Positions 16,555 through 58,707 of a stretch of DNA of 64,000 nucleotides are shown in pieces. Under the pieces are notes generated by a model that was given only the letters and a program-made list of their open reading frames with translations, did not search any database and was not told the origin of the DNA. Location of the stretch: IMG/VR virus record IMGVR_UViG_3300023055_000005; one strand, 5' to 3'. The translations under genes and the position numbers were made by a program. The stretch is from a virus. Its lineage: Duplodnaviria; Caudoviricetes. The first letter of the stretch is position 1. Every line of letters begins with the position of its first letter.

Positions 16555-16734
16555 ATGGACATCAGTGATAACGCAGTGAAGCTGATCGTAGCAGGTGCTG
16601 TCGTAACTGCTGCTGGTTTGGGTTATGTGACCTACAAGAAGGGTCGCAAAGATGGCGTCCGTCTGGGCGCTGCCATCCAGCTCGGGCTGTACGACGACAA
16701 GCTGCGCAAGAACAAATCCCCCAAGGCCAAGTAA
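16555..16734 (+). CDS. Small single-pass membrane protein with basic tail
   Basis: AAGGAG Shine-Dalgarno; LIVAGAVVTAAGLGYVTY then KKGRK...KLRKNKSPKAK. Confidence 0.75.
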   Translation: MDISDNAVKLIVAGAVVTAAGLGYVTYKKGRKDGVRLGAAIQLGLYDDKLRKNKSPKAK

Positions 16735-16744
16735 GGACACTATC

Positions 16745-16948
16745 ATGATCATCGCAAAAGAAGACGCAATCGTTGCTGGCATCTCTCTGGCTGTTGGCGT
16801 CGCTGCAGTTGGCGCTGCCATGTACTTCGAAGGCAAGGCCCGTGGCCTGCGCTCCACCGGCGCTATCCAAGCAATGGCTGCTGGCGTTCGTGCCACGGCG
16901 GAGGCTGAAGCTGCCGCCAAGAAGCCGGCCAAGAAGACCCGTCGCTAA
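16745..16948 (+). CDS. Small single-pass membrane protein with Lys/Ala tail
   Basis: AAGGA Shine-Dalgarno; IVAGISLAVGVAAVGAAMYF then AAAKKPAKKTRR. Confidence 0.75.
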   Translation: MIIAKEDAIVAGISLAVGVAAVGAAMYFEGKARGLRSTGAIQAMAAGVRATAEAEAAAKKPAKKTRR

Positions 16949-17017
16949 ACGCACCAAGCTGTAAACTGCAATACGAACACCCAACCCCTTCCGCAGTACC
17001 CCTAAAGGAGCATCACC

Positions 17018-17245
17018 ATGAACTTCAAGCACACCGCTATCTTCGCCCTGCTGGTTTCCTTCTTCGGAATCATCGGCTATGGCATCGCTGACAAGGCACT
17101 GGCCTATGAGGTCTCTGTCTGCGGCACCGGCATCACCCTCGCATCCCAGCTGATGCGCGACAACACTCCCCACTGCAGCGTGACCTCGATCGGTTTCTTC
17201 AGTGGCCACCAGTCTTCCCGGATCGTTTTCCAGGAGCAGCAGTAA
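17018..17245 (+). CDS. Small exported/membrane protein
   Basis: AAGGAG Shine-Dalgarno; signal-peptide-like N-terminus ending ALA; two Cys. Confidence 0.7.
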   Translation: MNFKHTAIFALLVSFFGIIGYGIADKALAYEVSVCGTGITLASQLMRDNTPHCSVTSIGFFSGHQSSRIVFQEQQ

Positions 17246-17586
17246 TGACCGGTATCAAAGGAACCTACAAAGACGACAAGGGCGTCGTCCGTGATATCCG
17301 CCAGATGCCCAACGTGGCTGAGGAAGTAATCAAGATGGAAGCTGAGGCCGCTGAGATCGACGAGGCTGAAACTTTCCTCGAAGACCTGGTCAACGTCAAG
17401 AAAGAAGACGTGCTCCTCACGATCGACGTACCCGAAGCCAGCGGTTGGTTCCGTAAGAAGCTGTTCTTGTCCGATGCCTTCATGACCGAACTTGAACGCC
17501 AGCTCTACGGGGAAGGACGTGACCGCATTCGTGCTCGCCGCCGCCGTGCTCGTCAAGCTTCCAATCGCCGCCGCCGCAAGAAGTAA
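17245..17586 (+). CDS. Hypothetical protein with acidic body and Arg-rich C-terminal motif
   Basis: Translationally coupled (TAATG); ends RIRARRRRARQASNRRRRKK. Confidence 0.8.
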   Translation: MTGIKGTYKDDKGVVRDIRQMPNVAEEVIKMEAEAAEIDEAETFLEDLVNVKKEDVLLTIDVPEASGWFRKKLFLSDAFMTELERQLYGEGRDRIRARRRRARQASNRRRRKK

Positions 17587-17680
17587 CCCGCCAGTACTGG
17601 GAGTCTCCGTAAGGAGGCTCTCGGTGCTATGTCCACCCAAAGGCTTTTCTTTTAGCCAGGAGCAATGAGGAACTACAGCC

Positions 17681-18082
17681 ATGATCGACACGGCTACGCT
17701 TAACCAAGTGCACATGGAACAAGTCGCCCAGTGCGGCAAGAAGTTCCACCATGCAGCAGAAGTTATCGGCTGTGACGTCATGCGTCGTATCGCTTCCCTG
17801 CTCCTCGACCGGGACAAGCTGTACAACTACTACCGCCGCCCCGGTTACACTGCCAGCCTGAATCAGCCCAAGCCGGAGATCGAAATCAAACTCCCGCTCT
17901 TCCTGGGCTATGACCTGCTGAACTCCATCGACAACTCGATCCAGCTTACGCTCCAGAGCGAACTGGAACGAGCCCTAGACGAAGTCGCCGAAACCGTCCG
18001 CCTGCAAATTGGCAAGCGTACCTACAGCGGCGAAGATCGTTCCGACAAACTCACCATCGTCCTCAAGGGCGAACTGATCTAA
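17681..18082 (+). CDS. Hypothetical protein
   Basis: GAGG Shine-Dalgarno; coding-like codon usage. Confidence 0.75.
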   Translation: MIDTATLNQVHMEQVAQCGKKFHHAAEVIGCDVMRRIASLLLDRDKLYNYYRRPGYTASLNQPKPEIEIKLPLFLGYDLLNSIDNSIQLTLQSELERALDEVAETVRLQIGKRTYSGEDRSDKLTIVLKGELI

Positions 18083-18110
18083 TTCCCTCAACTACCAAAG
18101 GTATACGAAA

Positions 18111-18479
18111 ATGATCCAAGTCAACACCAACAAGCTGCGCGGCGAACTGACCGAAAACCAGCAGGTGATCGTCAAGACCGCCATCGCCGCCATCGCCACT
18201 GCTCTCACCGACGGTGAGCTGGTTCTCTCCAGCTCGGAAACCATCAAGGACATGCTCATCATCAAGCTGCCGTTGGCCGAGGCCTTCAGCCGCGAACTGC
18301 ACCAGTCCATCGACTTCGCCACCAAGTACGAGATCCAGCGTCGTCTGGCGGCGGAGATTGTCGAAGCCCGCAACGTGATCTTCAACATCGATATCGGCGA
18401 TCGCTACGAGTCCGATGAGCAGTACGAGAAGAAGTGCCTGGACACCCTGAACTTCACCATCCCGGCGCCCACGGTCTAA
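18111..18479 (+). CDS. Hypothetical protein
   Basis: AAGG Shine-Dalgarno; possible paralog of the upstream ORF (IKLPL...SID). Confidence 0.75.
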   Translation: MIQVNTNKLRGELTENQQVIVKTAIAAIATALTDGELVLSSSETIKDMLIIKLPLAEAFSRELHQSIDFATKYEIQRRLAAEIVEARNVIFNIDIGDRYESDEQYEKKCLDTLNFTIPAPTV

Positions 18480-18543
18480 TCGACCTGGGCTCCACCCTTT
18501 CCCCCGCAACAAACCTTCCGTTTACTAGCAAAGGAGTTTCACC

Positions 18544-18960
18544 ATGAAGAACCCGCTCAATGTCGTCGCCGCTTACAACGAAGCCAACCTGGTCAGCTTC
18601 CACAAGACCGGCCTGCGCAACATCGCAACCGAACGTTCCGAGACGCTGGTAACCCTCGGCAATGCCCTGACCGAGATCATGGGCAACCCGAACGAGATCC
18701 GCAAAGCCTACGAACCCGCTGAAGGCGTGGTGCGCTTCTCCGTCCGCGTCAAGTACTGGGACAAGTTCGTCACCGGCATGATGCGTCCGGCCCTCGACGA
18801 CGCTGGCCTGAACGGCACCGAGATCACCTGCAACACCGACGTCGAAGTCATCGGTTACGATTTCGCCGACGTCCTCATGGTCACCTTCACCGTACCGCTG
18901 GTCGACCCGGCCATCCTGGAAGCGGCCGCTCTGTCCGAGCTGGAACCGGCGGGGGAGTAA
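18544..18960 (+). CDS. Hypothetical protein
   Basis: AAGGAGTTTCACCATG initiation region. Confidence 0.8.
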   Translation: MKNPLNVVAAYNEANLVSFHKTGLRNIATERSETLVTLGNALTEIMGNPNEIRKAYEPAEGVVRFSVRVKYWDKFVTGMMRPALDDAGLNGTEITCNTDVEVIGYDFADVLMVTFTVPLVDPAILEAAALSELEPAGE

Positions 18961-19023
18961 TCCCCCGTAACACCCCCCTCCCCCAAGTCATCCACCATCC
19001 CTTAGTCTTTGGAGTACCTAGTC

Positions 19024-19143
19024 ATGATCAAGAACATTCTCGCAGTCGTCGGTGCCGCTGTCGTCCTGAAGCACGCTGTCAAGATCGGTGTCAAGTTGTC
19101 CAAGGACTACGCCGAGCTGGAAGGCTACCGTCGCGTCAAGTAA
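19024..19143 (+). CDS. 39-aa hydrophobic microprotein, not in ORF track
   Basis: GGAG Shine-Dalgarno; MIKNILAVVGAAVVLKHAVKIGVKLSKDYAELEGYRRVK. Confidence 0.6.
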   Translation: MIKNILAVVGAAVVLKHAVKIGVKLSKDYAELEGYRRVK

Positions 19144-19183
19144 GTCTGCAGTACAACTCCCTCCGCTACCAAAGGTAATCGCA

Positions 19184-19393
19184 ATGTCCATGTTCTCCCG
19201 CAATGACCTGATCGCACTGGGCGCCACTGCTGTTGTCGCCATCGGTGTCACCTACGTCAACCACCGCATCTCCAAGAACGTGATCGCCGCACTGACCTCT
19301 CCGGAGTCGCGTGCCAAGATCGCCGGTGCCAAGAACAAGCCGGCTCCCAAGAAGAAGCTGAAGAAGGTTGCCACCCGCGCCGCCGCTGCTTGA
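19184..19393 (+). CDS. Small single-pass membrane protein with Lys-rich tail
   Basis: AAAGG Shine-Dalgarno; LIALGATAVVAIGVTYV then KNKPAPKKKLKKVATRAAAA. Confidence 0.75.
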   Translation: MSMFSRNDLIALGATAVVAIGVTYVNHRISKNVIAALTSPESRAKIAGAKNKPAPKKKLKKVATRAAAA

Positions 19394-19397
19394 AGTC

Positions 19398-19436
19398 GAT
19401 TCAAACAAACTTGAGTTCTATATAACTCAGGTGAAG
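19398..19436 (+). promoter_or_regulatory. Phage early-type promoter
   Basis: GATTCAAACAAACTTGAGTTCTATATAACTCAGGTGAAG; last 19 nt identical to the copy at 16482-16500. Confidence 0.75.
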
Positions 19437-19497
19437 TAGTACCCGCAATACCTGCAACACCCACCCTTATTTCCAAAACAAGCAAAGGAGTTTCACC

Positions 19498-19947
19498 ATG
19501 TCCGCAGTCCTCAAGAATTCCGCCACCACCGTCATCACCGCTGAAGTGCTGCGCCAGATCGCAGCCAAGCTGCCGCAGATCGAATACAACCCCGATTGGG
19601 CCAACGGCACCGGTTACTTCAACGGCGCCTGTGAGTTCAAGCTGGAGCACACCGCCGCCTTCACCGATGACATCGGCCGTGTCGGCATCATCCACCCGGT
19701 TGACCTGCCGCAGGGCCGTACCGGCAACATCGTCCTGTTCCAGCGTGACAGCAGCAGCCGTGTCTGCGCCAACGTCCCGCTGGGCTACAACAACGATGAC
19801 GAAGAAAACGCCAACATCGGCAAGACCTACCAGGGCAAGATGGTCACCAACGGCTTCACCCTCAGCGCCCATGGTCGCTGGTACGACTACGAAGATCTGT
19901 CCAACCGCATGATCTTCGACCTGGACACCCTGCTCGCCCTCGCATAA
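19498..19947 (+). CDS. Hypothetical early protein
   Basis: AAGGAGTTTCACCATG; extreme codon bias. N-terminal YNPDWANGTGYFNGA looks like a recurring phage motif but is not assigned. Confidence 0.85.
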   Translation: MSAVLKNSATTVITAEVLRQIAAKLPQIEYNPDWANGTGYFNGACEFKLEHTAAFTDDIGRVGIIHPVDLPQGRTGNIVLFQRDSSSRVCANVPLGYNNDDEENANIGKTYQGKMVTNGFTLSAHGRWYDYEDLSNRMIFDLDTLLALA

Positions 19948-19975
19948 ACCAACCCAAGTAAAAGGATTCCCGCTC

Positions 19976-20158
19976 ATGTCCCTGGACGAACGCATTGAAC
20001 GTAGTCGTCGCGAACTCCTGGCCCACATTGGCGGGAAGTCCGATTACCAGATCCGCGACGAAGCACGCCGCTTCAACGCAGCACATCAGTACAAGAACAA
20101 CAACTCCTCCGCACAGGTCAAGCGCCTGTGCAACTCCTCCTACAAGTTCGACGCCTAA
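19976..20158 (+). CDS. Small hypothetical protein
   Basis: AAGGA Shine-Dalgarno; 60 aa. Confidence 0.65.
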   Translation: MSLDERIERSRRELLAHIGGKSDYQIRDEARRFNAAHQYKNNNSSAQVKRLCNSSYKFDA

Positions 20159-20173
20159 GAAAGGAATCTCCAA

Positions 20174-20455
20174 ATGTTCATGCACTCCTCCGAACGTACC
20201 GCCCTGTTCGCAACCGCCGCCATCGCTGCAGTCATCGTCGGCGCCGCCGTTGTCCACCAGCGCAAGCAGAAGAAGGCGATGACCGAGTTCGAAGAATCCA
20301 TCGCCAACCTCGGCAAGATCAACCTGAGCCCGGCTGCCACCTTCGCCGCTCACGGCGGCGTGGTTGAACTGTCCAAGTTCCGCGCAGCCAAGGGCAAGAA
20401 GGCCGCAGCCAAGAAGACCCCCACCAAGAAGCCGGCCGTTCGTAAGGTCCGCTAA
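20174..20455 (+). CDS. Single-pass membrane protein with histone-H1-like Lys/Ala tail
   Basis: LFATAAIAAVIVGAAVV, then KGKKAAAKKTPTKKPAVRKVR. Confidence 0.8.
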   Translation: MFMHSSERTALFATAAIAAVIVGAAVVHQRKQKKAMTEFEESIANLGKINLSPAATFAAHGGVVELSKFRAAKGKKAAAKKTPTKKPAVRKVR

Positions 20456-20456
20456 C

Positions 20457-20552
20457 ATGGGCAGCCTGATCTGGCGCGTCTCCTCCCGCGCTGTCGTGGC
20501 TGCGGGCATCATCTACCTCCTCAACTTCCACCCGATGAACAAGTACGAATAA
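20457..20552 (+). CDS. 31-aa hydrophobic microprotein
   Basis: ATG 1 nt after the upstream stop; MGSLIWRVSSRAVVAAGIIYLLNFHPMNKYE. Confidence 0.45.
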   Translation: MGSLIWRVSSRAVVAAGIIYLLNFHPMNKYE

Positions 20553-20601
20553 TCGTACCTCATCAATCCCTTCTCGCAATACCAATCCAAGGAGTTTCAC
20601 C

Positions 20602-21039
20602 ATGACTTTCGCAAACATCGTCTTCGTCGCCATGACCGTCGCCTGCCTGTTCGGTGCATACCAGCTGTACTGCATGCACACCGGCAAGCTGACCAAGCGC
20701 ATCCTGCGCAACGTACACCGCCTGACCGATTCCCTGTTGGCCATGAACCGCCGCACCAGTTCCGAGCGTCAGGACTGGGTGGGTCAGATGAACCTGTGGT
20801 ACGGCGTCATCACCGTGGTCTTCTGCCTGGTGGCCGTGTACTTCGGTGCCATCCACGTCTGCATCCCGCTGATCGCCGCCTTCGGTATCACCCGCGAAAG
20901 CAACGCCATGTACCTGCGACTGGTGGAAGCTGACGTGGCCAACCTCGAAGAGAGCGCCAACACCATCAAGCGTGACATCATGGAAGGTTGCCGTAATCTG
21001 GACCTGAGCAACATCAGCGCCAACGTCGACCGTCTGTAA
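20602..21039 (+). CDS. Multi-pass membrane protein
   Basis: AAGGAGTTTCACCATG; 2-3 hydrophobic segments. Confidence 0.8.
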   Translation: MTFANIVFVAMTVACLFGAYQLYCMHTGKLTKRILRNVHRLTDSLLAMNRRTSSERQDWVGQMNLWYGVITVVFCLVAVYFGAIHVCIPLIAAFGITRESNAMYLRLVEADVANLEESANTIKRDIMEGCRNLDLSNISANVDRL

Positions 21040-21040
21040 G

Positions 21041-21098
21041 CGGCATAGCTGGGCTCCCCGCGAGGGGAGCCCAGTATCCAGTCCTCTTTTTTTTTGCT
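21041..21098. terminator. Bidirectional terminator between convergent genes
   Basis: GGCATAG-CTGGGCTCCCC-GCGA-GGGGAGCCCAG-TATCC, then a T9 tract. Confidence 0.8.
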
Positions 21099-22844
21099 TT
21101 ACGCGTGCTCTGCCTGACGCGCACGTTCACCGATGCGGTGGATGTTGTCCAACACGTCCGGGTTCTGAACCAGTCCGCGGTCACGACGGAAGTTCTGCAG
21201 GAGCGTATCCATGCTCGGGGCGTTGTACAGGGTACGCACGATCTCCACGGCATTGGTAGTGCCGCCGGTGATGTTGATGCCCTGTGCACGCTGCACCTCT
21301 TCGGGAATGTCGCGCATCATGCACAGCTCGCGCAACGTGGTTTCCTTGGAGATGTTCATCACCACTTCCAACGTCGGGTAAGTACCAACGGCGTCGCAGT
21401 CTGCCACGTGAGTGAAGATTGCGGTGGGATGGTTCGGCAGCTCTTCGATCAGACAGACACCATCGTCGACCAGGTACGAAGGCAGCGTCACGATCCAGTC
21501 GTTCATACCGAGCACGAACTTGTCGTTCTCATCCACCATGTCACGACCGGTGGAACCCATGATCTTGCCTTCGTTCTGCACGAAGAAATGCAAGTCATCG
21601 CAGGTGCGCTTGGGCTGAGACGGGAACTTGCTGTACTCGGAGTGTTCGACCAGAACCGAGATCACGCGCTTCAGATCGTTGGTCTCATCATCGAGCATCT
21701 CCATACCAACGCAGTCGAACACGTTGTAGATGCAGTACTCGATCGGGTACTTGCTCTGCATGAACTTGTGCCAGTCCAGACCCTTCAAATGGTCAGCGAC
21801 GTCGAAGTTCAGCTTGCGCACACCCAGGTTCTTGTTGAGGATGTGATCCAGTCGGTAACTGGTTTCATTACCCTTGGTGACACGCAGCTTCTTGTAGACG
21901 CACATGGCGTCAAGGAAGACGAAGGCGGACGGACATTCCATCGTGTGCCAACGATCGGCAGGGTGGATGGGTTTCAGTGCGCCAGTTGCGGTCTGCTGCT
22001 TCGAACGTCCTTCCTTGTATCGGACAAAGCGGAATGCCGGCGGAACACTCGGATCGGAGAACACGTCAGCGGAGTTGATGCGTTCACGTTCCAGTGCAGC
22101 CAGGATCTTGGGTAAGTCGAAGTTGATGTTCCAGATCGCGATGATGTCAGGCGAGATCTCGTGAGCACGTTCGAAGATCTTCCTGATCAGCTCACCCGGC
22201 GTCTTACCAAAGTGAACCTGCAAGTTGATCCCTCGTGCCTTCTTGACTTCGCCGAGGTAGGTTTCCATCGCATTGTGCAGAGCCTTCTCAGGCTCAGGGA
22301 TGTGCTTGACGAACGAGTCCTTGACGCAGAGGATGACATCCTGCTTGCAGGCCAAGGTGATCGAGACGATCTCCTCAGTACCATGAACAACGTCCGTTTC
22401 AATGTCGAGCGTGGCCACCAAGTTATCGCTGATGTGCTGCGGGAACTTGTGACGGTAACTGTGCTTCAGCAGAACCGGGGTGGTGATGTCCGAACCGTAG
22501 AGGTACGGAGACATGCCTGCCATCGGCATGCCGCCCTGGATCATGCCGCGGCCGAGCGCCTTGGATACACTGGCCAACAGCTTGTGCTGAGGCGTGGTGT
22601 ACTTCTGCAGCTTGTCAACGTCCTCCCACTCCTTCTTATCGGTGTGGTTGCGGAAGTTCGGCTTGGTGACGTAGAAGTCACGGGGGTAATCCTTGAAGCG
22701 ACGGATGCGGGGGACACAGCGACCATCCTTCAGATAGACCTTCTCCTTCACGACCAAAAGGTCGAAAGGTGCGTCTTTCGGATGGCAGTAAACGGCGTGT
22801 TTACACTCCAATCCGACAATGTCTTCCTGTTTAATTTGGGTCAT
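21099..22844 (-). CDS. Split family-B DNA polymerase, exonuclease-containing subunit (phiKZ gp82-like)
   Basis: ExoI TLDIETD, ExoII IWNINFDLPKI, FLDAMCVY, ExoIII YNVFDC, then a region-A-like DCDAVGTYPT near the C-terminus; no KxxxNSxYG or YGDTD. Confidence 0.85.
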   Translation of the reverse strand: MTQIKQEDIVGLECKHAVYCHPKDAPFDLLVVKEKVYLKDGRCVPRIRRFKDYPRDFYVTKPNFRNHTDKKEWEDVDKLQKYTTPQHKLLASVSKALGRGMIQGGMPMAGMSPYLYGSDITTPVLLKHSYRHKFPQHISDNLVATLDIETDVVHGTEEIVSITLACKQDVILCVKDSFVKHIPEPEKALHNAMETYLGEVKKARGINLQVHFGKTPGELIRKIFERAHEISPDIIAIWNINFDLPKILAALERERINSADVFSDPSVPPAFRFVRYKEGRSKQQTATGALKPIHPADRWHTMECPSAFVFLDAMCVYKKLRVTKGNETSYRLDHILNKNLGVRKLNFDVADHLKGLDWHKFMQSKYPIEYCIYNVFDCVGMEMLDDETNDLKRVISVLVEHSEYSKFPSQPKRTCDDLHFFVQNEGKIMGSTGRDMVDENDKFVLGMNDWIVTLPSYLVDDGVCLIEELPNHPTAIFTHVADCDAVGTYPTLEVVMNISKETTLRELCMMRDIPEEVQRAQGINITGGTTNAVEIVRTLYNAPSMDTLLQNFRRDRGLVQNPDVLDNIHRIGERARQAEHA

Positions 22845-22929
22845 TAAGAGCTCCGCTGAGTACCGCTATTCCTGAGACTATACTATCACTATGAGCAGTA
22901 AATAATCACAGAGATCCAAAGGAACCCCT

Positions 22930-35747: not shown

Positions 35748-35790
35748 TATGGGGAGACCCTTCGGGGTCTCCCCCTATGTCGCTATGCCC
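35748..35790 (+). terminator. Hairpin terminator
   Basis: GGGGAGACCC-TTCG-GGGTCTCCCC followed by TATG twice. Confidence 0.7.
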
Positions 35791-35799: not shown

Positions 35800-35837
35800 G
35801 ATTCAAATAAGTTTCACCCCTATATCACCCATGTGAG
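35800..35837 (+). promoter_or_regulatory. Phage early-type promoter
   Basis: GATTCAAATAAGTTTCACCCCTATATCACCCATGTGAG. Confidence 0.72.
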
Positions 35838-35902: not shown

Positions 35903-36289
35903 ATGTCCAAGAATACCCCCGTCCGTGACGTCAACACCGCTGTCAACCTGCTCCGCGCCGCTGCCCTGGCCAACATCAACGGCGAGCTGCTGCCGAAGCT
36001 GATCAAGGATCTGTCCGAGAACGACTCGGTGACCGTCTCCGGCAACCTGATCGACCGCGCCACCTTCGATGCCGCCATGGGCGAAATCAACGCATCGCTG
36101 ATGCTGACCGACGGCCACGCCGCCGGCCTGGAAGCCTACACCGGCGAAGCCGCTGAAGAAGGCATGGGCTGGGTCGGCAAGACCATGATCGCTGGCGTTG
36201 TCGTCGGTGGTCTGGCCGGTCTGGCCTACTGGTACTTCAACCGCGACGGTGCCGTCGACGGCGCGCTGTTCGGTGGCCGCGGCTACTAA
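35903..36289 (+). CDS. Tail-anchored membrane protein, probably early
   Basis: AAGGAG Shine-Dalgarno; C-terminal TM MIAGVVVGGLAGLAYWYF; own promoter and terminator. Confidence 0.8.
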   Translation: MSKNTPVRDVNTAVNLLRAAALANINGELLPKLIKDLSENDSVTVSGNLIDRATFDAAMGEINASLMLTDGHAAGLEAYTGEAAEEGMGWVGKTMIAGVVVGGLAGLAYWYFNRDGAVDGALFGGRGY

Positions 36290-36304: not shown

Positions 36305-36360
36305 GACATAGTCTCCACTCCCCTACGGGGGAGTGGAGCTACAGGTAGTCTTTTTTTTGT
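36305..36360 (+). terminator. Hairpin terminator
   Basis: CTCCACTCCC-CTACG-GGGGAGTGGAG, then a T tract. Confidence 0.7.
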
Positions 36361-45717: not shown

Positions 45718-46159
45718 CCTGTCATCGGTTGACCCCTACGCCGAACGCAACCTGTTGCTGGCCCTGCTGTCCCATCACTACCCGGCTTTCATCTGCCGCA
45801 CCAACGAGCACGGGTGGGACGATGACTGGCGCTGGAGTTGCTACCTGCGCCTGCCGGCTGGCCAGATCAACTTCCACTTCCACGACAGCCAGCTGATGAT
45901 CTTCCAGCATCTGCCGGTCAAGGAAGAAGGCTGGGATGGAGCGGACAAGAAAGAAGTCCTCATCCGACTGGACACCATGGTGCGTCAGTTCGGCGATCTC
46001 ACCCACGTACCCAAGGTCGACCTGAAGTGGTTGATCGACGATGTGCGTATTGCCTCCCGTGACCTGGCTGGCAAGTCCCCGCTGACCGCTCTGAACGAAC
46101 TGGTCGATCGAGCCAAAGAACACAACAAGCAGTACGAAATCCAAAAGGAGCTTTTTTGA
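45710..46159 (+). CDS. Conserved phage hypothetical protein (LPxGQ...WDG family)
   Basis: YLRLPAGQINFHFHD...EGWDG. Confidence 0.75.
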   Translation: MTDLSSVDPYAERNLLLALLSHHYPAFICRTNEHGWDDDWRWSCYLRLPAGQINFHFHDSQLMIFQHLPVKEEGWDGADKKEVLIRLDTMVRQFGDLTHVPKVDLKWLIDDVRIASRDLAGKSPLTALNELVDRAKEHNKQYEIQKELF

Positions 46160-46569
46160 ACGCTGTCTATCCCTATCTGGTCTGGTCGCTGGCCATTGTG
46201 CTGGTGATCGCAATCATCGCCATCTTCTACCTCGTGCGTCAGATCGCGCTGGTCTACCAGGCTCGCGCGGAATACGAGCAGAACGCCCAGAAGGCGTCCT
46301 GGATGGTCGCCCGCATGGAGAACGCGTATGAAGATCTGGCCCAGGACTGCCATATCCTCTACTTCGCGCTGGCGCAGGCATGGTCCTCCTTCCGCGTCAT
46401 GAAAGAAGACCGGTGGCACATCTACATCAACCTGCCCACTGGGCTGGTGGTGTACGTCATTCCGCCCGAACAGGACGAGCTGTTCTCGGTGATCGATATC
46501 GGTCCTGAAGTCGACGAAGAGATCACGCCCATCAAGGTCCGCGAGCGTCTGCTCGGCACCGCCCTCTAA
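46156..46569 (+). CDS. Membrane-anchored paralog of upstream protein
   Basis: N-terminal TM; RWHIYINLPTG. Confidence 0.7.
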   Translation: MNAVYPYLVWSLAIVLVIAIIAIFYLVRQIALVYQARAEYEQNAQKASWMVARMENAYEDLAQDCHILYFALAQAWSSFRVMKEDRWHIYINLPTGLVVYVIPPEQDELFSVIDIGPEVDEEITPIKVRERLLGTAL

Positions 46570-50914: not shown

Positions 50915-51246
50915 TGCCTGATCGTCACCTCATCATGCGCAATGGCACTACCCAGTACAGCTACGCTCACAAGGGTCGTGTCTACGAACCCACGGTCAGC
51001 CGCATCAACCCCGATGGCTCCCTCACTCGGCTACAGCCCGGCGAGAAGGGTGACTACGTCATGGAGTTCCGTGGGCGTCAGCGTCGGATTACGTTGCTGC
51101 CGGGCGCACTCCCGGAAGGCGCGGCACCGGATGCCGAAATCCCGATGGACATCCGCGTCTCCAGTTGGCGCAAGCGTGATCCCCGCAGGCTGCGTCGCGG
51201 TCAGCAGCGTACGCTGTACAAGAAGCGCAAGCAGACTCGTGCATGA
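50914..51246 (+). CDS. Hypothetical basic protein
   Basis: TAATG coupling. Confidence 0.68.
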   Translation: MPDRHLIMRNGTTQYSYAHKGRVYEPTVSRINPDGSLTRLQPGEKGDYVMEFRGRQRRITLLPGALPEGAAPDAEIPMDIRVSSWRKRDPRRLRRGQQRTLYKKRKQTRA

Positions 51247-51518
51247 AGTACGTTGTCATGGTAGCCAGCACGATCATCTTCGCCGCGCTGGTGATCATCT
51301 CGATCATCCTCGCATCGCTGTTGTTCATCTCCGGCTATAGTCCTCGTGTGCAGACTGCCAATGTTGAAACTCCCAGCATTGGCGTGGAGGTGCGGTACTT
51401 CATGGTGGACGGAATGCAGTGGGTGCACTTCATTCCTCCTGGTAGCTCCATGGAGTGCATACAGCGCCGGCACAAAGCCCTCTCGGTCCAATGTGTACCG
51501 CTGAAGCAAGAGCCCTGA
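51243..51518 (+). CDS. Membrane-anchored hypothetical protein
   Basis: ATGA overlap; long N-terminal TM. Confidence 0.65.
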   Translation: MKYVVMVASTIIFAALVIISIILASLLFISGYSPRVQTANVETPSIGVEVRYFMVDGMQWVHFIPPGSSMECIQRRHKALSVQCVPLKQEP

Positions 51519-51522
51519 GAAA

Positions 51523-51612: not shown

Positions 51613-51654
51613 TACCATACCCAAACCGAATCAAACTACTAACGGAGTAATACC

Positions 51655-52407
51655 GTGACTCGCAAGATTGGTCCCTACGAACACTACCTGCACATCGAAA
51701 CCTCCGCAGACGACTACGAACGTCTGAAGGCTGCCGGCATCAATGGCGCCCATCACTGGAACACCGACCGGCAAGCCTTGGACGCCCTGGCACGCACTGT
51801 CGAAGAGATCGCTCCCAAGGCGATGTTGATGTACTGCTCCGGCACTGACATGCGTGTGCGTGGTACGCGCGTCTCTGTCCTGCAGCTCCCTAGCTGCATG
51901 CAGTACGAGGTTCGTCAGGATCTCGGCTATGGCTACAAGATCCTCCACTCCGACGAAGAGCTGGCTGACTGCGACTGCCTGCTCTCCAGCATGATCAACG
52001 AAGATCACCCCAAGGTCCAGGGACTGCCCTGCGGCACGACGATCAAGGTCATCAGCACCAAGATCGTGGAGAGCGCAGACTTCACCTCTGACGAACAGTT
52101 GGAGTACTGGATCAATGGCCGGGATATCCACCGCAGCAAGGACGCTGAGCAGACCATCAAGTTCACCAACCTCAACGAAGGTGAGTGCTGCCCGGACTTC
52201 GGCTGCTGTGCTCCCACCACGGGCTCTGTGGAGGCGCGTAAGGCCTATTACAATGCGCACAAGGCCAAGGACTCCGATACCAAGCAGAAGCTGCTGATGG
52301 GCTTCCTGGGCAGCGCTGTGCTGAACGCAAGCGAGGCTGCCGGTGATAAGCCGAAGAGCACTTACATCGCTGGCAGTGGTCCGGCGCGTTCCACCAAACT
52401 GAACTGA
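51655..52407 (+). CDS. Hypothetical protein with Cys-rich C-terminal module
   Basis: GTG start after GGAG; W..G...H...ECCPDFGCC. Confidence 0.75.
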   Translation: MTRKIGPYEHYLHIETSADDYERLKAAGINGAHHWNTDRQALDALARTVEEIAPKAMLMYCSGTDMRVRGTRVSVLQLPSCMQYEVRQDLGYGYKILHSDEELADCDCLLSSMINEDHPKVQGLPCGTTIKVISTKIVESADFTSDEQLEYWINGRDIHRSKDAEQTIKFTNLNEGECCPDFGCCAPTTGSVEARKAYYNAHKAKDSDTKQKLLMGFLGSAVLNASEAAGDKPKSTYIAGSGPARSTKLN

Positions 52408-52416
52408 GAAATCGCA

Positions 52417-53079
52417 ATGAAGAAAGAGTACAAGGTCAAGTTCTGGGGCAGCTGCATGAACGATGGCTGGATCTGGAAGCAGATGCCCGAACTCGGCGAA
52501 TCGAAGCATCATTGGTTCGACACCGCTGAAGAGCGCACTGCTTTCATCGAAAAGATCAAGGCAGTGATGGCTACCGGGGAGAAGAACGGTCCTGTCGCAA
52601 TCTTCGATACCTGTGAAGGGGATGACACGCGCATTCGTAGCGTCGCCGTCTGCACCATGGTCACGCCCGATGGTAAGCGCTACACCATCACCGAGGACTT
52701 CGGATACGGCGATCTCCAGAAGACCGCTGATTTCATCTTCTTCGACTACGAGGAGAACAACCGTTCTTGCGATCATCGTCGGCAGGCCATGATTGCGGCA
52801 CGCTATCCGGATTACGTGCGTAGCGATGAACTGGATACGTGCAATGAAACCATCGTCTTGGAAAACCTCCACGTTACGCTGGTCAGCGAGTTTATCACCG
52901 AGGAGCAGCAGGCGGAGTTGCTCAGGGATGGACGCCATGTCATCGCAATGTTCCCGGAGGCATTCGGTGGCCCTGACGGTTCGGTGGATTTCACCAAGTG
53001 TCGTCCGTATTTTTTCCAGAGCATGCCGCAGGTTGACGTCGCTGCTTTCTACGCTGCCAGTAACAAGCAAACCCACTGA
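52417..53079 (+). CDS. Hypothetical protein, possible metal-binding
   Basis: EENNRSCDHRR...DTCNE. Confidence 0.75.
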   Translation: MKKEYKVKFWGSCMNDGWIWKQMPELGESKHHWFDTAEERTAFIEKIKAVMATGEKNGPVAIFDTCEGDDTRIRSVAVCTMVTPDGKRYTITEDFGYGDLQKTADFIFFDYEENNRSCDHRRQAMIAARYPDYVRSDELDTCNETIVLENLHVTLVSEFITEEQQAELLRDGRHVIAMFPEAFGGPDGSVDFTKCRPYFFQSMPQVDVAAFYAASNKQTH

Positions 53080-53210
53080 GTATTTTCGAACTCCCCCTGG
53101 CTATGAAATAGGGGAAGCAGAGACCGCTCTTACGCGTAGCGTTATGCCTTAAATATTAGGGGAGGCGTAGCCTCCCTTTCCTTTTATCTTTTGCCCTTCA
53201 GGAACTGCAA

Positions 53211-53795
53211 ATGGAAAAGTACGGACCGCATGCAAGTTCACCTGCAGACCGGATCAACACAGCTGAGCTGTTGCAACACCAGATCACAGCAGCGTTGAAC
53301 AGGCATGCGACTTACTCCAAGGTCGGAACCATTGAACAGCGTATCACCTACCCGCTGGACTTCTACTGCTATCGCACGGTGCGGTATGGAGGCCCCAAGG
53401 GTACTGGCAAGAGCACTGCCATCGCCAAGCTTGCTCGACCGGGGGACATGATCATCGTCTCCTCCCAGCCGTGTCGTAACAGGATGGCGACCTTGCTGGT
53501 GGAGAACGGCAAGAGCGACAATGACATCACGATCTTGGACGCCGAAGAGTTCATGGACAAGATCTTCGCCAAACTGCCTGAGGAACCACCTGCAATCCTC
53601 AACAAGCGTCATGAAGTTCACTCGGCAGGTGATGAAGGTATCCGTCGCGTGTTTGTAGATGACGTCATGCTCATCTGCCCACGTTTCCAGAAGATGGTGC
53701 ACGGTACACCTGTCCCGGCCTTCGTACCGGCGGTGTTGCGCTATGGCTGCCATTGCAGCTACCCCCAGCCTGTCATTGTGCTGGTGAACCTGTGA
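53211..53795 (+). CDS. Small P-loop NTPase
   Basis: Walker A GGPKGTGKST; Walker-B-like RVFVDD. Confidence 0.7.
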   Translation: MEKYGPHASSPADRINTAELLQHQITAALNRHATYSKVGTIEQRITYPLDFYCYRTVRYGGPKGTGKSTAIAKLARPGDMIIVSSQPCRNRMATLLVENGKSDNDITILDAEEFMDKIFAKLPEEPPAILNKRHEVHSAGDEGIRRVFVDDVMLICPRFQKMVHGTPVPAFVPAVLRYGCHCSYPQPVIVLVNL

Positions 53796-53806
53796 GCGGG
53801 GAATGC

Positions 53807-53956
53807 ATGCGGATGGCCACCAACGCTGAGGCGGCACTGGCAATCAGTCTCTACGTGATCATCATGGTCGCCACGATACTGATCCTCCCCAACACCAAGC
53901 ACATCTGGAGATGGGTCAAACGCCTCTTCTCCAAGAAGGCTGACGACAATGCCTGA
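53807..53956 (+). CDS. Small membrane protein
   Basis: ALAISLYVIIMVATILIL; overlaps the next start. Confidence 0.5.
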   Translation: MRMATNAEAALAISLYVIIMVATILILPNTKHIWRWVKRLFSKKADDNA

Positions 53957-54179
53957 CTACGTGAAGCGATTTGAGTTTCGTCTTCGCCAGAGCGCTGCAC
54001 TTGTCAATGCAAGACAAGAGCTGACTCGTTTAAAAGCTTACATGTCATCCCCTTGTTACGAGGAGCTCGATGCAGCCCGGCAGGAATGGGTTCGAGAACA
54101 GATCGTAGTGGAAGAGAAACGCCTGCAGTACCTGACGGCGTGGAGTCACTACTTCGAGTCCTCTAAGAGCAAGCCTTAA
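53949..54179 (+). CDS. Small coiled-coil hypothetical protein
   Basis: 76 aa; AAGG Shine-Dalgarno. Confidence 0.6.
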   Translation: MPDYVKRFEFRLRQSAALVNARQELTRLKAYMSSPCYEELDAARQEWVREQIVVEEKRLQYLTAWSHYFESSKSKP

Positions 54180-54201
54180 TCAATCACTTGGGGAGGGGGT
54201 C

Positions 54202-54669
54202 ATGGAAATTGCACTGTACATTGGCGCTGGGCTGCTGGTCATCATCATTCTGCTGGCACTGCGCAATCGCTCGTATCTGAAAGACCTGATGGCTTCCATG
54301 GATGAAGTCTTGGGGGATGCCGACGACGTCGCGTTCCCGAAGGAGATTCCGGAGGACATCATCCAGCAGACCCGCCAACGCGAATGGCCGCCTGCTCCGT
54401 GGCAGACCGACCCCAGGGTCACACTGGCTACCTCTGGTCTGTATCCGTTCTTGCGAATGGAAGCGTCCAGTAGTGAAGCCAGACTGAGGGCACTCACCCA
54501 GGCCTACGAACAGGAAAAGGGCAAGGAAAATCCTGACGAAGAACTGGTCAAACACCTGCAACAACTCCGCCTGCATGAGAGCAATCTCGGGGCAAGTTTT
54601 CTGTTGGCGTATCTTCGCGCCGAAACCATCGCTGCACAACCACAAGGAACCGCTACGCATGTCGGGTAA
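54202..54669 (+). CDS. Membrane-anchored hypothetical protein
   Basis: GGAGG Shine-Dalgarno; N-terminal TM. Confidence 0.65.
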   Translation: MEIALYIGAGLLVIIILLALRNRSYLKDLMASMDEVLGDADDVAFPKEIPEDIIQQTRQREWPPAPWQTDPRVTLATSGLYPFLRMEASSSEARLRALTQAYEQEKGKENPDEELVKHLQQLRLHESNLGASFLLAYLRAETIAAQPQGTATHVG

Positions 54670-55099
54670 CTTCTTCAAGGAAAAGATCGTCGTCCATCAC
54701 AGCCCGTTCGTCGAACAGGATTTGCTGAATGCGGTCAAGGAACAGATCGCCGACCGCCTGGACAGCCAGGGTCTGCCGCACGATCCCAGCGTCATCGTGT
54801 TCAACAACCTCGGGCCGTCCGGCGCCGGTGATGTGCTGACCTTCGCATGGGAAGGCGAGTTCTTCGTGGCCGGTCCGCAGAACGCTGGCCAGAGCCTGGG
54901 CACCGTCGTGCACAACAGCGACGTGAACGTCTTCCTCGGCAAGCGCGAAGCCAAGCTCGGCACCTTCGCCAAGAACTTCATCAACGGCCTGGGCAACATC
55001 GACCTGAACGCTACCCAGGTTCCGTCGCTGGCCGACGTCATCCGTCAGATCAACGACTTCCGCGACATCTTCCCGCGCCTGGAAGCAACCCGCGTCTAA
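54659..55099 (+). CDS. Hypothetical protein, strongly biased codons
   Basis: AAGGA Shine-Dalgarno before ATG 54659. Confidence 0.8.
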   Translation: MSGNFFKEKIVVHHSPFVEQDLLNAVKEQIADRLDSQGLPHDPSVIVFNNLGPSGAGDVLTFAWEGEFFVAGPQNAGQSLGTVVHNSDVNVFLGKREAKLGTFAKNFINGLGNIDLNATQVPSLADVIRQINDFRDIFPRLEATRV

Positions 55100-55152
55100 T
55101 AGCGCCGGCCTGTAATACCTGCCCCCACCTCCGGGTGGGGGTTTTATACCGA

Positions 55153-55302
55153 ATGGAGAAAGACGTGACACCCGTCGAAGCCTACCTCATCAGCCAGATC
55201 ATCTACGCTGTCATCGTTTGCGTGTTTGTAGTACCCGCAATGATCGGCGCAGGTATTGATGTGTACCGTATCCACAAGACCAAAGTGAAGGTAAAGAAAT
55301 GA
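55153..55302 (+). CDS. Small membrane protein
   Basis: IIYAVIVCVFVVPAMIGAGI, basic tail; ATGA overlap with the next gene. Confidence 0.5.
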   Translation: MEKDVTPVEAYLISQIIYAVIVCVFVVPAMIGAGIDVYRIHKTKVKVKK

Positions 55303-56495
55303 CGCAGCATTACGTTGGAACCAAGGTCATCCAGGCATACGAGAACGAGAAGGACGGCAAGCCCGGCTTCGCCGTTCAGTACCCGGATGGCTACACCTCC
55401 TGGTCCCCGAAGGAAGTCTTCGAAGAAGCTTACCTTCCGATCGGCGTCATCCCGGCCGGTACGCCGGACTTCGTGCAGCGCATGATTGCTGAACGTGTCC
55501 AGCTCAACGACCGTAAGAATAAGCTTAACGATTTCTACGTCGAAGCCAAGAAGAACGGCGGTCACCCGGATCTTCAGGGCGACGAGCTGTCGGACATCGA
55601 CGATCAGCTTGAACGGATGGTCGAATATCTCCAAGCACTGGATCAGCGCATCCAACGCCACGGCTTCATCTTCCACGACACCGGCCGTGTGCTCACGGTG
55701 CAGCAGGCCCAGGTCGAAAGCTATACCCGGATCAAAGAAATCATCGTCCAGATCATCGCCGCCGCGGAGAAGAAGGGCGAGCCGCTGGACCTTGCTGCCA
55801 CGCAGGATATCCCGAAGGCAATCCGCGAGAAAATCTTCCTCGAATTCGACGCGGGCAGTGTAGTTGAATGCTCTTTCGAGAATGCCTATTGGAATGTGAG
55901 GGTGAGGGGGATGCTGCTGTTCAGCCGCTCGGTCCACGAGTACAAGATCCGCCACCTGGAATGCTACCGTAGCACCGTCGACAAGCGCATCGCCCAGGCT
56001 ATCCAAAGTGCCTATGCGGAAGTCACCTCGATTGGCAATACCGCCAATGATGTCGTGTTCATGAACTACCTCTCTACGCACTTCCTCAAGAAGGTCGGGG
56101 ACATGGGTCAGGTCGCCATCGCCGGCCGCCGCATCGACGACTACTGGAAGTTCATTGTCGATTACACCGATGACGTGCTGCAGGGAATCTTCCTCTGCTA
56201 CAATTCGGTCAGATACTCGGCTTTCAGGGTGGAGATGCTGAGTCTGAACTCTCGCCAGTCTCGCTTCGAGCAGGCGCTGGACTCCTTGCGCACGCTCGTC
56301 CCCGACAGTGTCAGGGAAGCAATCCTTACCAAGCTCGATGAAAGCATCTGCCCGGTGGGCGACGTACTTGGGCCGTTGCCAACCCTTACTATCACCCGCC
56401 GCGGCGCGGCTATTGTCTACAAGGATGAAGCCTTGGAGCGTCTGAACCAGATGATCCAGGCGGCCGTCGCCAAGATGCAGGAGGCCAAGGCATGA
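55299..56495 (+). CDS. Multidomain phage protein (YxGTK...YPDGY.SWSPK module, coiled-coil module, unknown C-terminal region)
   Basis: HYVGTKVIQA...YPDGYTSWSPKEVFEEAY; FVQRMIAERVQLNDRKNKL...QLERMVEYLQALDQRI. Confidence 0.8.
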   Translation: MTQHYVGTKVIQAYENEKDGKPGFAVQYPDGYTSWSPKEVFEEAYLPIGVIPAGTPDFVQRMIAERVQLNDRKNKLNDFYVEAKKNGGHPDLQGDELSDIDDQLERMVEYLQALDQRIQRHGFIFHDTGRVLTVQQAQVESYTRIKEIIVQIIAAAEKKGEPLDLAATQDIPKAIREKIFLEFDAGSVVECSFENAYWNVRVRGMLLFSRSVHEYKIRHLECYRSTVDKRIAQAIQSAYAEVTSIGNTANDVVFMNYLSTHFLKKVGDMGQVAIAGRRIDDYWKFIVDYTDDVLQGIFLCYNSVRYSAFRVEMLSLNSRQSRFEQALDSLRTLVPDSVREAILTKLDESICPVGDVLGPLPTLTITRRGAAIVYKDEALERLNQMIQAAVAKMQEAKA

Positions 56496-57220
56496 CCGAC
56501 TCCTACGGAAACTACGCGCTGCTCGTATCTTTCCCGGATCAGAGCGAGACCTTCACCCTCGGCGTAGAGGCCGGTGTGTTCTGGCAGCGCCTGTCCATGG
56601 GTGAACGTGAGTTTGAGTACTTGGCTCACACCAAGAACCTCGCATGCCTGGAACGGATGGCCGCGTCGATGGATCTCCAGGTCAAGACCATCGCCAGTGA
56701 CGATGAGTGGACGACCCTCGGTATCTACCCGAAGGCGGCGGAGAAAGAAAGGCCGCGGCTGATGCTGATCAACGGTGGCATTCACGTGAGCACGGAGAAG
56801 ATGGAGGGCGTGTCTGAAGCACTCGCCAATCATGAACTCCAACGCACATTGGTGCAGGTGCTCGATGGCAAGTACCGTGCCGGTGAGGTTGTCACTGTCC
56901 GCCGCAATCTCGAAGGCATCATCCCGCTGTTCGGCAATATCTTCAGCGCAGACACCACCTTCATCGTCAACACCAACGCCACCTTCGACGAGCTGCAGGC
57001 AGTCATCGAACCGCTGCTCGTGCCCATCGGCAGTAAGCGTTCGCAGGTCTACCTGTCGTACTCGCTGCCGGTTGTCGATGCGTGCTATGCCAAGTATGTG
57101 GTGATCGATCGTCGCCGCATGCCTGGCAGTGAGAGCGATGCCTTCCAGCGTACCGAGGCCTTGATCAAGGGTATTACCAAGATCGCCAAGGTGCCGCCGG
57201 TGTTCATCGTAATGGACTAA
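56492..57220 (+). CDS. Hypothetical protein
   Basis: GGAGG Shine-Dalgarno; ATGA overlap. Confidence 0.75.
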   Translation: MTDSYGNYALLVSFPDQSETFTLGVEAGVFWQRLSMGEREFEYLAHTKNLACLERMAASMDLQVKTIASDDEWTTLGIYPKAAEKERPRLMLINGGIHVSTEKMEGVSEALANHELQRTLVQVLDGKYRAGEVVTVRRNLEGIIPLFGNIFSADTTFIVNTNATFDELQAVIEPLLVPIGSKRSQVYLSYSLPVVDACYAKYVVIDRRRMPGSESDAFQRTEALIKGITKIAKVPPVFIVMD

Positions 57221-57223
57221 GTG

Positions 57224-57268
57224 AACGGGAGGGGCTTCGGCCCCTCCCTCTATGTCTTTTTTTTTGTC
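57224..57268 (+). terminator. Intrinsic terminator
   Basis: GGGAGGGGC-TTCG-GCCCCTCCC, then TATG and a T tract. Confidence 0.8.
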
Positions 57269-57325
57269 TGGTTTTCTGCCCACTATATGGGGCGCTTTCG
57301 CCCGTCTACGCAGCTAACCGGGATC

Positions 57326-57718
57326 ATGGCAATGTTGAAACACTTCGTACTACTGAAAACTTTCGAGCACGGCTGGCAGGCCAAGCAGTTTGTTCTGATC
57401 CTGCGTCAGCGCCTGACCAGCTCCAAGTCCTTCCTGGGCGCATGGAGCTGGGCACAGACGACGATGACTCTGCCCGACCACCCAGAGCAATTCGAAGGTC
57501 CAGTCATTCTGGAGAACGGCTATCGCGACGTGGCCTGCTATCGCGACAAGTGCCGCAACGGCGAAGGTGACGTGTACACCTATCCGGCCATGAAGGACTG
57601 GATCGAAGGTGGGTTCTGCGGTGAGCCGCCGTCCCCGCCACAAGAGTCCGACGACCAACAGACGTTGGGCGACTTGGGCAACATTTCCAAACTTACCAAG
57701 TCTGAGGACGCGCCATGA
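57326..57718 (+). CDS. Hypothetical protein
   Basis: Start likely ATG 57326 or 57332; ATGA overlap with the next gene. Confidence 0.65.
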   Translation: MAMLKHFVLLKTFEHGWQAKQFVLILRQRLTSSKSFLGAWSWAQTTMTLPDHPEQFEGPVILENGYRDVACYRDKCRNGEGDVYTYPAMKDWIEGGFCGEPPSPPQESDDQQTLGDLGNISKLTKSEDAP

Positions 57719-58146
57719 GCAGTACCAACAAACGACAGTGCTGCTACCTCGGTGAAGGTCGCTATCTGGTCCGCAGTGCAGAAGGCTACGAAGAAGCCAA
57801 GCAGCAAGCGCTCAAGCAGAGCGGCCTGCGTGGTCCGGATGTCAAGATCAAGTACACCGGCGTCTTCCGCTTCGGCTATCCGGCGGTGGTCTGGTTCTGG
57901 CCGATCTTCCGTGGGAACATGCGTTGGGACATCTACGCCTGCTCCTACCACCTGAACACGTACATGGAGTTCCTCCACAAGCGCCTGAAGGAGCTGGAGA
58001 ACCATGACGTGCTGATCGCCGAGCTGGGCTATACCAAGCTGGCCGAGGTGGCCGCCGGTCGTGCAGCCGATGATCCGGAGTTCCACGCTGATCTTCTGCG
58101 CCTGCTCGAAGAAGGCGCTGCCTCCAACGAAACCAAGGAACCCTGA
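57715..58146 (+). CDS. Hypothetical protein
   Basis: GAGG Shine-Dalgarno. Confidence 0.72.
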   Translation: MSSTNKRQCCYLGEGRYLVRSAEGYEEAKQQALKQSGLRGPDVKIKYTGVFRFGYPAVVWFWPIFRGNMRWDIYACSYHLNTYMEFLHKRLKELENHDVLIAELGYTKLAEVAAGRAADDPEFHADLLRLLEEGAASNETKEP

Positions 58147-58376
58147 TGTTCATCGGTCTGTTCAAAATGGCACTCGGCATCGGCGGGTTGTTCTTCACCC
58201 TGCTGGGCATGTTCGTGTTCTTCAAGGTGTTCATCGCGCCCAAGGTTGCGCCGATGGATACCTCCAACCGGATCAACCACCTGCGCCTGCTTTGGTTCGT
58301 GCTGGCCAGGCCGGAACTGTTCGTCGACACGTTCCCGTGGCTGAAGAACGATGAGCTGAAGAACGTCACCAAGTGA
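58146..58376 (+). CDS. Small membrane protein
   Basis: TGATG coupling; long hydrophobic N-terminus. Confidence 0.7.
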   Translation: MFIGLFKMALGIGGLFFTLLGMFVFFKVFIAPKVAPMDTSNRINHLRLLWFVLARPELFVDTFPWLKNDELKNVTK

Positions 58377-58410
58377 CATATCGCCCCTCCCAGACGGGAG
58401 GGGCTTTATG
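58377..58410. repeat. CATA-hairpin-TATG element; inverted near-copy of 8432-8466
   Basis: CATATCGCCCCTCCCAGACGGGAGGGGCTTTATG. Confidence 0.85.
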
Positions 58411-58412
58411 CC

Positions 58413-58450
58413 GATTCCAATATGTTTCAACCCTATATAACTCATGTGAG
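58413..58450 (+). promoter_or_regulatory. Phage early-type promoter
   Basis: GATTCCAATATGTTTCAACCCTATATAACTCATGTGAG. Confidence 0.75.
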
Positions 58451-58500
58451 GTTCCAATCAAAAGACCTCATTCCCTTCTTAAACTCAATGGAGATTCAAC

Positions 58501-58707
58501 ATGAACAAGTCCACCCCGAAGACCAACAACGTCGCCGCTCGTCGTATCGCTCCGGCACGTAAGCCCCTCATCAAGCGCCTTGGTTCGGCTGTCGTCGATA
58601 CCGCCAAGGACAAGCAGGTCCAGATTGTTGTCGGTGGTTCGCTCGCAGTTTGCGCGCTGATCATCACCGGCGCAGTCCTGGCTGATAAGTACCTGGAACG
58701 TAACTAA
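58501..58707 (+). CDS. Small tail-anchored membrane protein with basic N-terminus
   Basis: GGAG Shine-Dalgarno; IVVGGSLAVCALIITGAVLA. Confidence 0.75.
   Translation: MNKSTPKTNNVAARRIAPARKPLIKRLGSAVVDTAKDKQVQIVVGGSLAVCALIITGAVLADKYLERN

Follow-up and report, generated by a model that had tools for sequence, protein, structure and literature searches.

The 64,000-nucleotide (nt) stretch of IMG/VR virus record IMGVR_UViG_3300023055_000005 analyzed here (hereafter, the window) carries seven small genes, starting at positions 16555, 16745, 19024, 19184, 20174, 35903 and 58501, all on the plus strand, which an earlier inspection (the sequence-only reading) had described as a family of early single-pass membrane microproteins with Lys-rich, histone H1-like tails. 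They are genuine genes under purifying selection and are lineage-specific accessory genes of the Xoo-sp14-like genus; judged from sequence comparison, their products appear to form an architectural class. Four of the products are predicted to cross the inner membrane once, and three of these four end in a lysine tail that, we argue, is a functional element separate from the basic cluster that would orient the protein. Our preferred, though tentative, explanation is that such proteins display short polycations at the cytoplasmic face of the membrane early in infection.

Source phage and coding evidence

Between 16 and 21 kb, the window is 74-78% identical in nucleotide sequence to Xoo-sp14, a phage of Xanthomonas, and the remainder of the 64 kb is colinear with the Xoo-sp14 genome. 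Both Xoo-sp14 and LucasX have been assigned to the chimalliviruses (bioRxiv 2024.03.21.585822). In addition, the window encodes phiKZ-type internal head proteins (PF12699), a PHIKZ098-like collar protein and, in the gene at 2079-4190, a non-virion RNA polymerase subunit homologous to PHIKZ071 (E = 1.7e-122). The Chimalliviridae setting assumed by the sequence-only reading is therefore sound, and the source is a relative of Xoo-sp14, that is, a giant nucleus-forming Xanthomonas phage. A second relative is represented by a 230-kb IMG/VR contig. Ortholog comparisons cover three genomes, those of the window phage, Xoo-sp14 and this IMG/VR relative; a 28-kb Logan contig from a fourth relative lies outside them.

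All seven open reading frames (ORFs) were found where they had been described, each with an ATG and a Shine-Dalgarno sequence, and the codon-usage score, calculated with a model for which the window's long genes served as the training set, was positive for every one. Syntenic orthologs are present in Xoo-sp14 for 7/7, annotated there as hypothetical proteins 240 (16555), 241 (16745), 246 (19024), 247 (19184), 250 (20174), 12 (35903) and 50 (58501), and in the IMG/VR relative for 5/7, with 16555 and 16745 being absent. The ratio of nonsynonymous to synonymous substitution rates (dN/dS) ranged from 0.05 to 0.77 across the ORFs, with values of 0.05-0.11 for 19024, 0.19 for 16555, 0.28-0.55 for 19184, 0.34-0.39 for 58501, 0.35-0.70 for 20174 and 0.61-0.77 for 35903. 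Ribosome-binding site and ATG, phage-like codon use, synteny and low dN/dS thus together establish the ORFs as genes.

Membrane topology and lysine tails

The core of the set consists of 16555-16734 (59 residues, ortholog of Xoosp14_240), 16745-16948 (67 residues, ortholog of Xoosp14_241), 19184-19393 (69 residues) and 20174-20455 (93 residues). Each product contains one uncharged, Ala/Gly/Val-rich run of 18-21 residues, with an N-terminal flank whose net charge is zero or negative and with 2-4 Lys or Arg residues within the first 8 positions past the helix. Because a neutral or acidic N flank followed by a basic C flank agrees with the positive-inside rule, the four are predicted to be N-out/C-in single-pass inner-membrane proteins. 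Transmembrane (TM) segments were called from simple hydrophobicity scales and sums rather than by a trained predictor, and the simple Hessa sums for the four helices lie between -1.3 and +1.4 kcal/mol.

Inspection of the segments beyond the helix revealed that 16745, 19184 and 20174 carry, in addition to the juxtamembrane basic cluster, a second and denser Lys cluster located 29, 24 and 37 residues away, respectively. The C-terminal segments of these three proteins are rich in Lys, Ala and Pro (6 Lys in 10 residues in the tail of 19184), and the positions of the tail lysines are invariant among orthologs. The cytoplasmic parts also prefer Lys to Arg, with K/(K+R) at 0.68 versus 0.46 for the proteome (p = 3.5e-4). 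In the AlphaFold2 model of 20174, which is of low confidence (mean pLDDT 64), helices at residues 5-47, 53-61 and 63-76 are followed by a disordered Lys/Ala/Pro tail at 77-93. The distal clusters are too far from the helix to serve in its orientation. From this detached position, the invariant lysines, the bias for Lys over Arg and the disorder in the 20174 model, we argue that the tails are elements with a function of their own.

The architecture proposed by the sequence-only reading, a shared helix followed by a basic tail, therefore applies to 16745, 19184 and 20174. In 16555, the helix is followed by the juxtamembrane cluster and a short basic C-terminus, and 19024 does not fit. The latter (19024-19143) encodes a 39-residue amphipathic peptide with 90% identity that has a high hydrophobic moment and lacks a Lys tail; since its longest uncharged run is only 12 residues, it is probably not a transmembrane protein but a peripheral amphipathic peptide. 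Any likeness to the C-terminal domain of histone H1 would lie in the composition of 16745, 19184 and 20174 and in the modeled disorder of the 20174 tail; these tails are only 10-22 residues long, and 16555 and 19024 do not conform. A Pfam scan of all the microproteins gave no family above cut-off, including the globular winged-helix domain of Linker_histone.

Two further genes had been described as variants. The reverse order noted for 58501 (58501-58707, 68 residues) was confirmed: a basic Arg/Lys/Pro N-tail comes first and a TM helix, within an uncharged run of 23 residues, stands at the C-terminus, so that the protein is predicted to be N-in. For 35903 (35903-36289, 128 residues), the C-terminal anchor was upheld, as a conserved alpha/beta N-domain and a linker precede a Gly-rich TM helix, but the protein lacks a basic tail and does not belong with the basic-tail set. 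Its gene is flanked by the genes of phiKZ-type internal head proteins and of the PHIKZ098-like collar protein, and a fold search with its model matched the Xoo-sp14 ortholog alone.

Relationships among the microproteins

To judge whether the genes form one family, similarity was scored against shuffles of 10-residue blocks, which keep local composition. Ortholog pairs scored at z > 26, whereas between-gene similarity vanished under these shuffles except for 16745 versus Xoosp14_239 (z = 4.2), a tail-bearing protein whose gene is found in Xoo-sp14 and the IMG/VR relative and not in the window. Profile comparison by hhalign linked 19184 and 20174 with a probability of 88.6% over the N-terminus, helix and juxtamembrane part; the values for 16745 versus Xoosp14_239, 16555 versus 16745 and 19184 versus 16745 were 16%, 1.3% and 0.8%. 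As similarity beyond composition is left for one pair only and profile comparison links only 19184 with 20174, the single homologous family of the sequence-only reading could not be maintained. The genes are better regarded as sharing an architecture, with no more than two pairs among them being putative distant paralogs, 19184/20174 and, weakly, 16745/Xoosp14_239. The number of genes also differs between close relatives: directly behind copy 1 of the promoter motif described below, Xoo-sp14 has the orthologs 239-240-241, the window 240-241 and the IMG/VR relative 239 alone.

Promoter motif and transcription units

A motif with the core CTATAT, then A/C/T, then A, then C/T, preceded by a T-rich element and followed by a conserved stretch, occurs five times in the window (at 2015, 16482, 19418, 35820 and 58433) and nine times in the 230-kb relative. 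In both, all copies are intergenic and on the coding strand, and none was found on the opposite strand. The first ATG follows each window copy at a distance of 64-83 nt. On the plus strand, copy 1 (16482-16498) lies 73 nt before 16555, and its position is kept in Xoo-sp14 and the IMG/VR relative; copy 2 (19418-19434), a near-duplicate of copy 1, lies 80 nt before 19498, which encodes a soluble protein of 149 residues; the copies at 35820-35836 and 58433-58449 lie 83 nt before 35903 and 68 nt before 58501; and a weaker copy (2015-2031) lies 64 nt before the ATG of the PHIKZ071-like polymerase gene.

The window core resembles TATATTAC, which we take to be the core of the phiKZ early promoter. 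In the phiKZ genome, this core was found 33 times in the forward and 9 times in the reverse orientation, against 10-12 for a reversed-pattern control, and its copies lie 39-135 nt (mostly 40-66) before ATGs. Jumbo phages that encode RNA polymerases are reported to have a conserved AT-rich motif near -10 at early operons, and the phiKZ early promoter is described as an extended -10 element with a T-rich part upstream of -19 (PMC7598289, PMC8244752). Genes for non-virion polymerase subunits are expressed early in phiKZ (PMC13282480). Likeness to the phiKZ core, intergenic co-directional placement and the copy before the non-virion polymerase gene all point to a phiKZ-type early promoter, that is, one presumably read by the virion RNA polymerase, and early timing is well supported by this analogy, as the sequence-only reading had supposed.

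The accompanying statement, that all the genes lie directly downstream of the promoter, was correct for 16555, 35903 and 58501. The others lie deeper in operons: 16745 comes second in its operon, 19024 and 19184 occupy places eight and nine, and behind copy 2, 20174 is the third gene. Each of 35903 and 58501 forms a unit of one gene that is insulated by strong hairpins on either side, located at 35751-35775 (upstream of the promoter copy) and 36313-36338 for the former, and at 58383-58404 (a phiKZ-type terminator upstream of the promoter copy) and 58727-58747 (terminator-like) for the latter. The hairpins at 16081-16120, 35751-35775 and 58383-58404, each just upstream of a promoter copy, are strong and GC-rich with a TTAT/TATG tail and resemble phiKZ terminators.

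When first genes within 150 nt of a promoter were compared with the other genes of the IMG/VR relative, small TM or secreted proteins accounted for 5/6 versus 24/235 (Fisher's exact test, p = 1e-4). Among promoter-proximal genes of phiKZ, small TM proteins were found in 3/23 (p = 0.28) and a Lys tail in none. No sigma-70-like promoters stood out, and motif discovery for early promoters of LucasX recovered only terminator-related words.

The intergenic region around copy 1 (16073-16554) is 88% identical in the three phages, which is above the flanking genes. It holds the terminator hairpin, a degenerate second promoter motif near 16140, another hairpin and an unannotated 42-codon ORF (16271-16399, plus strand) that has its own ribosome-binding site and encodes a very basic, Pro-rich, non-membrane peptide. 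This ORF is of equal length in the three genomes and its changes are mostly synonymous (dN/dS 0.25-0.39). No Rfam match was obtained in 15.9-21.2 kb.

Distribution

Word-indexed searches with 20174, 19184 and 35903 and a HMMER profile search of 1.84 billion representatives returned matches only inside the genus. No homolog beyond the genus was found by an IMG/VR scan or in PHROGs and Pfam, and the best score in the ESM Atlas (0.80) was at chance level. Profile searches of the whole LucasX and RTH11 genomes gave no real match; one weak match (E = 0.004) was rejected as it is out of frame within another gene. The microprotein module sits between the polymerase beta-subunit gene and the DNA polymerase gene, and in LucasX and RTH11 this slot is filled by other genes. 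We also counted a strict class, defined as proteins of at most 160 residues with one TM segment and a 15-residue window that has a net charge of +6 or more and contains four or more Lys. The window and the IMG/VR relative each contain three members, whereas none was found among 347 phiKZ and 306 LucasX gene calls. The module is not a device of chimalliviruses in general, and its restriction to one lineage argues against a conserved or core role in the early infection vesicle.

Possible function

The function that we favor, with somewhat less than even confidence, is the binding of polyanions at the cytoplasmic face by polycationic tails that are made early and anchored in the membrane. The virion RNA polymerase would read the promoter in the first minutes of infection, and the products of 16555, 16745, 19184 and 20174 would be inserted into the inner membrane of the host, leaving a short N-terminus outside. 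In each, an Ala/Gly/Val helix of low hydrophobicity would be followed by a basic cluster that sets the orientation, then by a helical linker and lastly by a disordered cytoplasmic Lys/Ala/Pro tail, and 58501 would display its basic N-tail from a C-terminal anchor. Jointly, the proteins would line the membrane with short polycations on its cytoplasmic side, and these may bind electrostatically to host nucleoid DNA, to RNA or ribosomes, or to anionic lipids. Such a lining would serve host takeover as an accessory function, and its architecture would count for more than the exact sequence. The grounds for this proposal are tails that are detached, conserved, biased toward Lys and disordered; the convergence on one design of genes that are barely related; and turnover in copy number between relatives. 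The membrane protein p16.7 of phi29, which recruits DNA to the membrane, provides a functional precedent (PMC4974454).

Several points weigh against this proposal. Early timing, membrane insertion and polyanion binding are each inferred, and, by simple hydrophobicity sums only, two helices come out as borderline (+0.7 and +1.4 kcal/mol). The tails, at 10-22 residues, are short, and the module's enrichment in TM genes within the window is marginal (6/14 versus 13/67, p = 0.067). Because phage DNA is enclosed during chimallivirus infection, cytoplasmic tails cannot reach it. Finally, the conserved TM and juxtamembrane sequence of 19184 and 16555 fits specific protein contacts better than generic charge.

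This last point leads to the main rival explanation, which we consider possible, if less probable, namely that the proteins are small TM modulators of host membrane proteins, perhaps acting in superinfection exclusion. Binding to a host component, be it a transporter, a receptor or a part of the secretion or division apparatus, would fall to the helix and juxtamembrane segment, and the tails would be secondary, contributing to orientation or stability. Bacteria and phages commonly have small bitopic regulators and exclusion proteins of this sort. In 19184 and 16555, the TM and juxtamembrane stretches hardly vary, the juxtamembrane part of 19184 being fully invariant; conservation within the module is highest for 19024 and 20457, even though neither has a Lys tail; and an accessory, genus-specific module is what host-specific interactions would produce. 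Nevertheless, modulation of this kind leaves it unexplained that the Lys clusters are conserved in position though too distant for orientation and that several barely related genes converge on one tail composition, and no match to exclusion-protein families was obtained in PHROG or Pfam.

Improbable, in our view, is a role as parts of the early infection vesicle or of the zone where it meets the nascent phage nucleus, such as the docking of ribosomes or exported mRNA; the vesicle had been the leading idea of the sequence-only reading. The vesicle derives from the inner membrane and has been proposed as a hub of early transcription and localized translation (bioRxiv 2024.03.24.586471; PMC13282480), and its channels and constituents are not yet known (PMC12908238). 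The predicted topology would place the tails on its cytoplasmic face, and the promoter is of the early type. However, the vesicle stage is conserved throughout the family whereas the genes are not, with no homologs in LucasX or RTH11 and the class absent from phiKZ and LucasX; copy number differs between close relatives; and the vesicle is formed before any phage gene expression. It is more likely that the microproteins reflect host-specific takeover or exclusion than conserved vesicle machinery. That the lysine tails specifically dock ribosomes or newly exported phage mRNA on the inner membrane or the early vesicle is a long shot. If true, they would be a genus-dedicated device for localized early translation, a function that has been proposed in the field without a known membrane-anchored phage factor.

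Least likely of all are membrane-permeabilizing or lysis-timing peptides of the holin/antiholin or depolarizing type I toxin kind, since the small single-pass form, the Gly/Ala-rich helices and weak PHROG holin matches for 19184 and 20174 are offset by E-values of 0.26-0.27, which are at chance level, by the early-type promoter, by a separation of some 22 kb from the gene that is annotated in Xoo-sp14 as peptidoglycan-binding (endolysin-like) and by helices that are only weakly hydrophobic.

Whichever function applies, the set would belong to a familiar class of small early phage membrane proteins, and as it is confined to one genus, the finding has a limited reach. For chimalliviruses, it is an open question what the vesicle consists of, by which route export proceeds and how the genome is handed over to the nucleus (PMC12908238, PMC13282480), and the analysis yields a short list of conserved, predicted-early membrane proteins with a cytoplasmic polycation as candidates for localization and knock-down. 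A by-product for the annotation of Xoo-sp14-like phages is a promoter map of about nine sites per genome, at which the promoter-proximal genes mostly encode small membrane or secreted proteins.

Neighboring genes

Beyond the genes listed in the sequence-only reading, the related genes are Xoosp14_239, considered above, and three on the plus strand of the window. In the operon of 16555 and 16745, 17018-17245 encodes 75 residues with a signal-peptide-like N-terminus and two conserved Cys, and the product is probably secreted. A hydrophobic peptide of 31 residues with 84-94% identity, unannotated in Xoo-sp14, is encoded at 20457-20552. The last gene of the module, 20602-21039, encodes a 145-residue membrane protein with at least two TM segments. 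The soluble genes of the module at 18111-18479 and 19498-19947 differ from the surrounding membrane microproteins in having dN/dS near 1 (0.7-1.1 in three phages).

Seven more genes for small membrane proteins lie at 46-62 kb (46156-46569, 51243-51518, 53813-53956, 54202-54669, 55165-55302, 58146-58376 and 61533-61787). All seven are kept in the IMG/VR relative and five of them in Xoo-sp14; the products of 53813 and 55165 have short basic tails, and none of the seven genes lies directly behind a promoter copy. In the IMG/VR relative (reverse complement, 212259-213663), a promoter copy is followed by three consecutive genes for membrane proteins of 79, 121 and 113 residues. Just after 58501, the plus-strand gene 58782-59807 encodes 341 residues with a Lys-rich N-terminus and an IF2_N match of 29.8 bits (cut-off 25.3); weaker helix-turn-helix matches were also obtained for this product, and no solved relative was found.

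Comparison with known systems

The promoter motif shares with phiKZ early promoters an AT-rich, -10-like core near TATATTAC, a T-rich part upstream and a location 54-90 nt before the first ATG (PMC8244752, PMC7598289). It differs in being present in about 9 rather than about 30 copies per genome and in being longer and more strictly conserved. A search for a transcriptome of the window phage or of Xoo-sp14 returned none.

Among membrane proteins, p16.7 of phi29 is also an early phage protein with an N-terminal anchor, and its cytoplasmic part binds nucleic acid (PMC4974454). Unlike the present tails, which are short and, in the model of 20174, disordered, p16.7 has a dimeric DNA-binding domain that is folded, and the phage DNA on which it acts is exposed, whereas phage DNA is enclosed here; no homology or family match connects the two. 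Bitopic proteins of the AcrZ/MgrB type and the exclusion proteins Imm and Sp of T4 are similar in having 30-100 residues, one helix and positive-inside topology, and in being often early or accessory, but they show no sequence relationship to the microproteins. Neither type is known for Lys/Ala/Pro tails detached from the helix. The coat proteins M13 g8p and Pf3 share the N-out/C-in single-pass topology, and their basic C-terminus contacts DNA; they have, however, very short tails and are subunits of the virion in single-stranded DNA phages, whereas the present genes follow an early-type promoter and gave no evidence of virion incorporation. In contrast to linker histone H1, the microproteins have no globular histone domain, their tails measure 10-22 rather than about 100 residues, and these tails are membrane-anchored. 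What they may have in common with the C-terminal domain of H1, and with the tails of AlgP, PhaF and PhaM, is a disordered, Lys/Ala/Pro-rich composition in which Lys is used over Arg.

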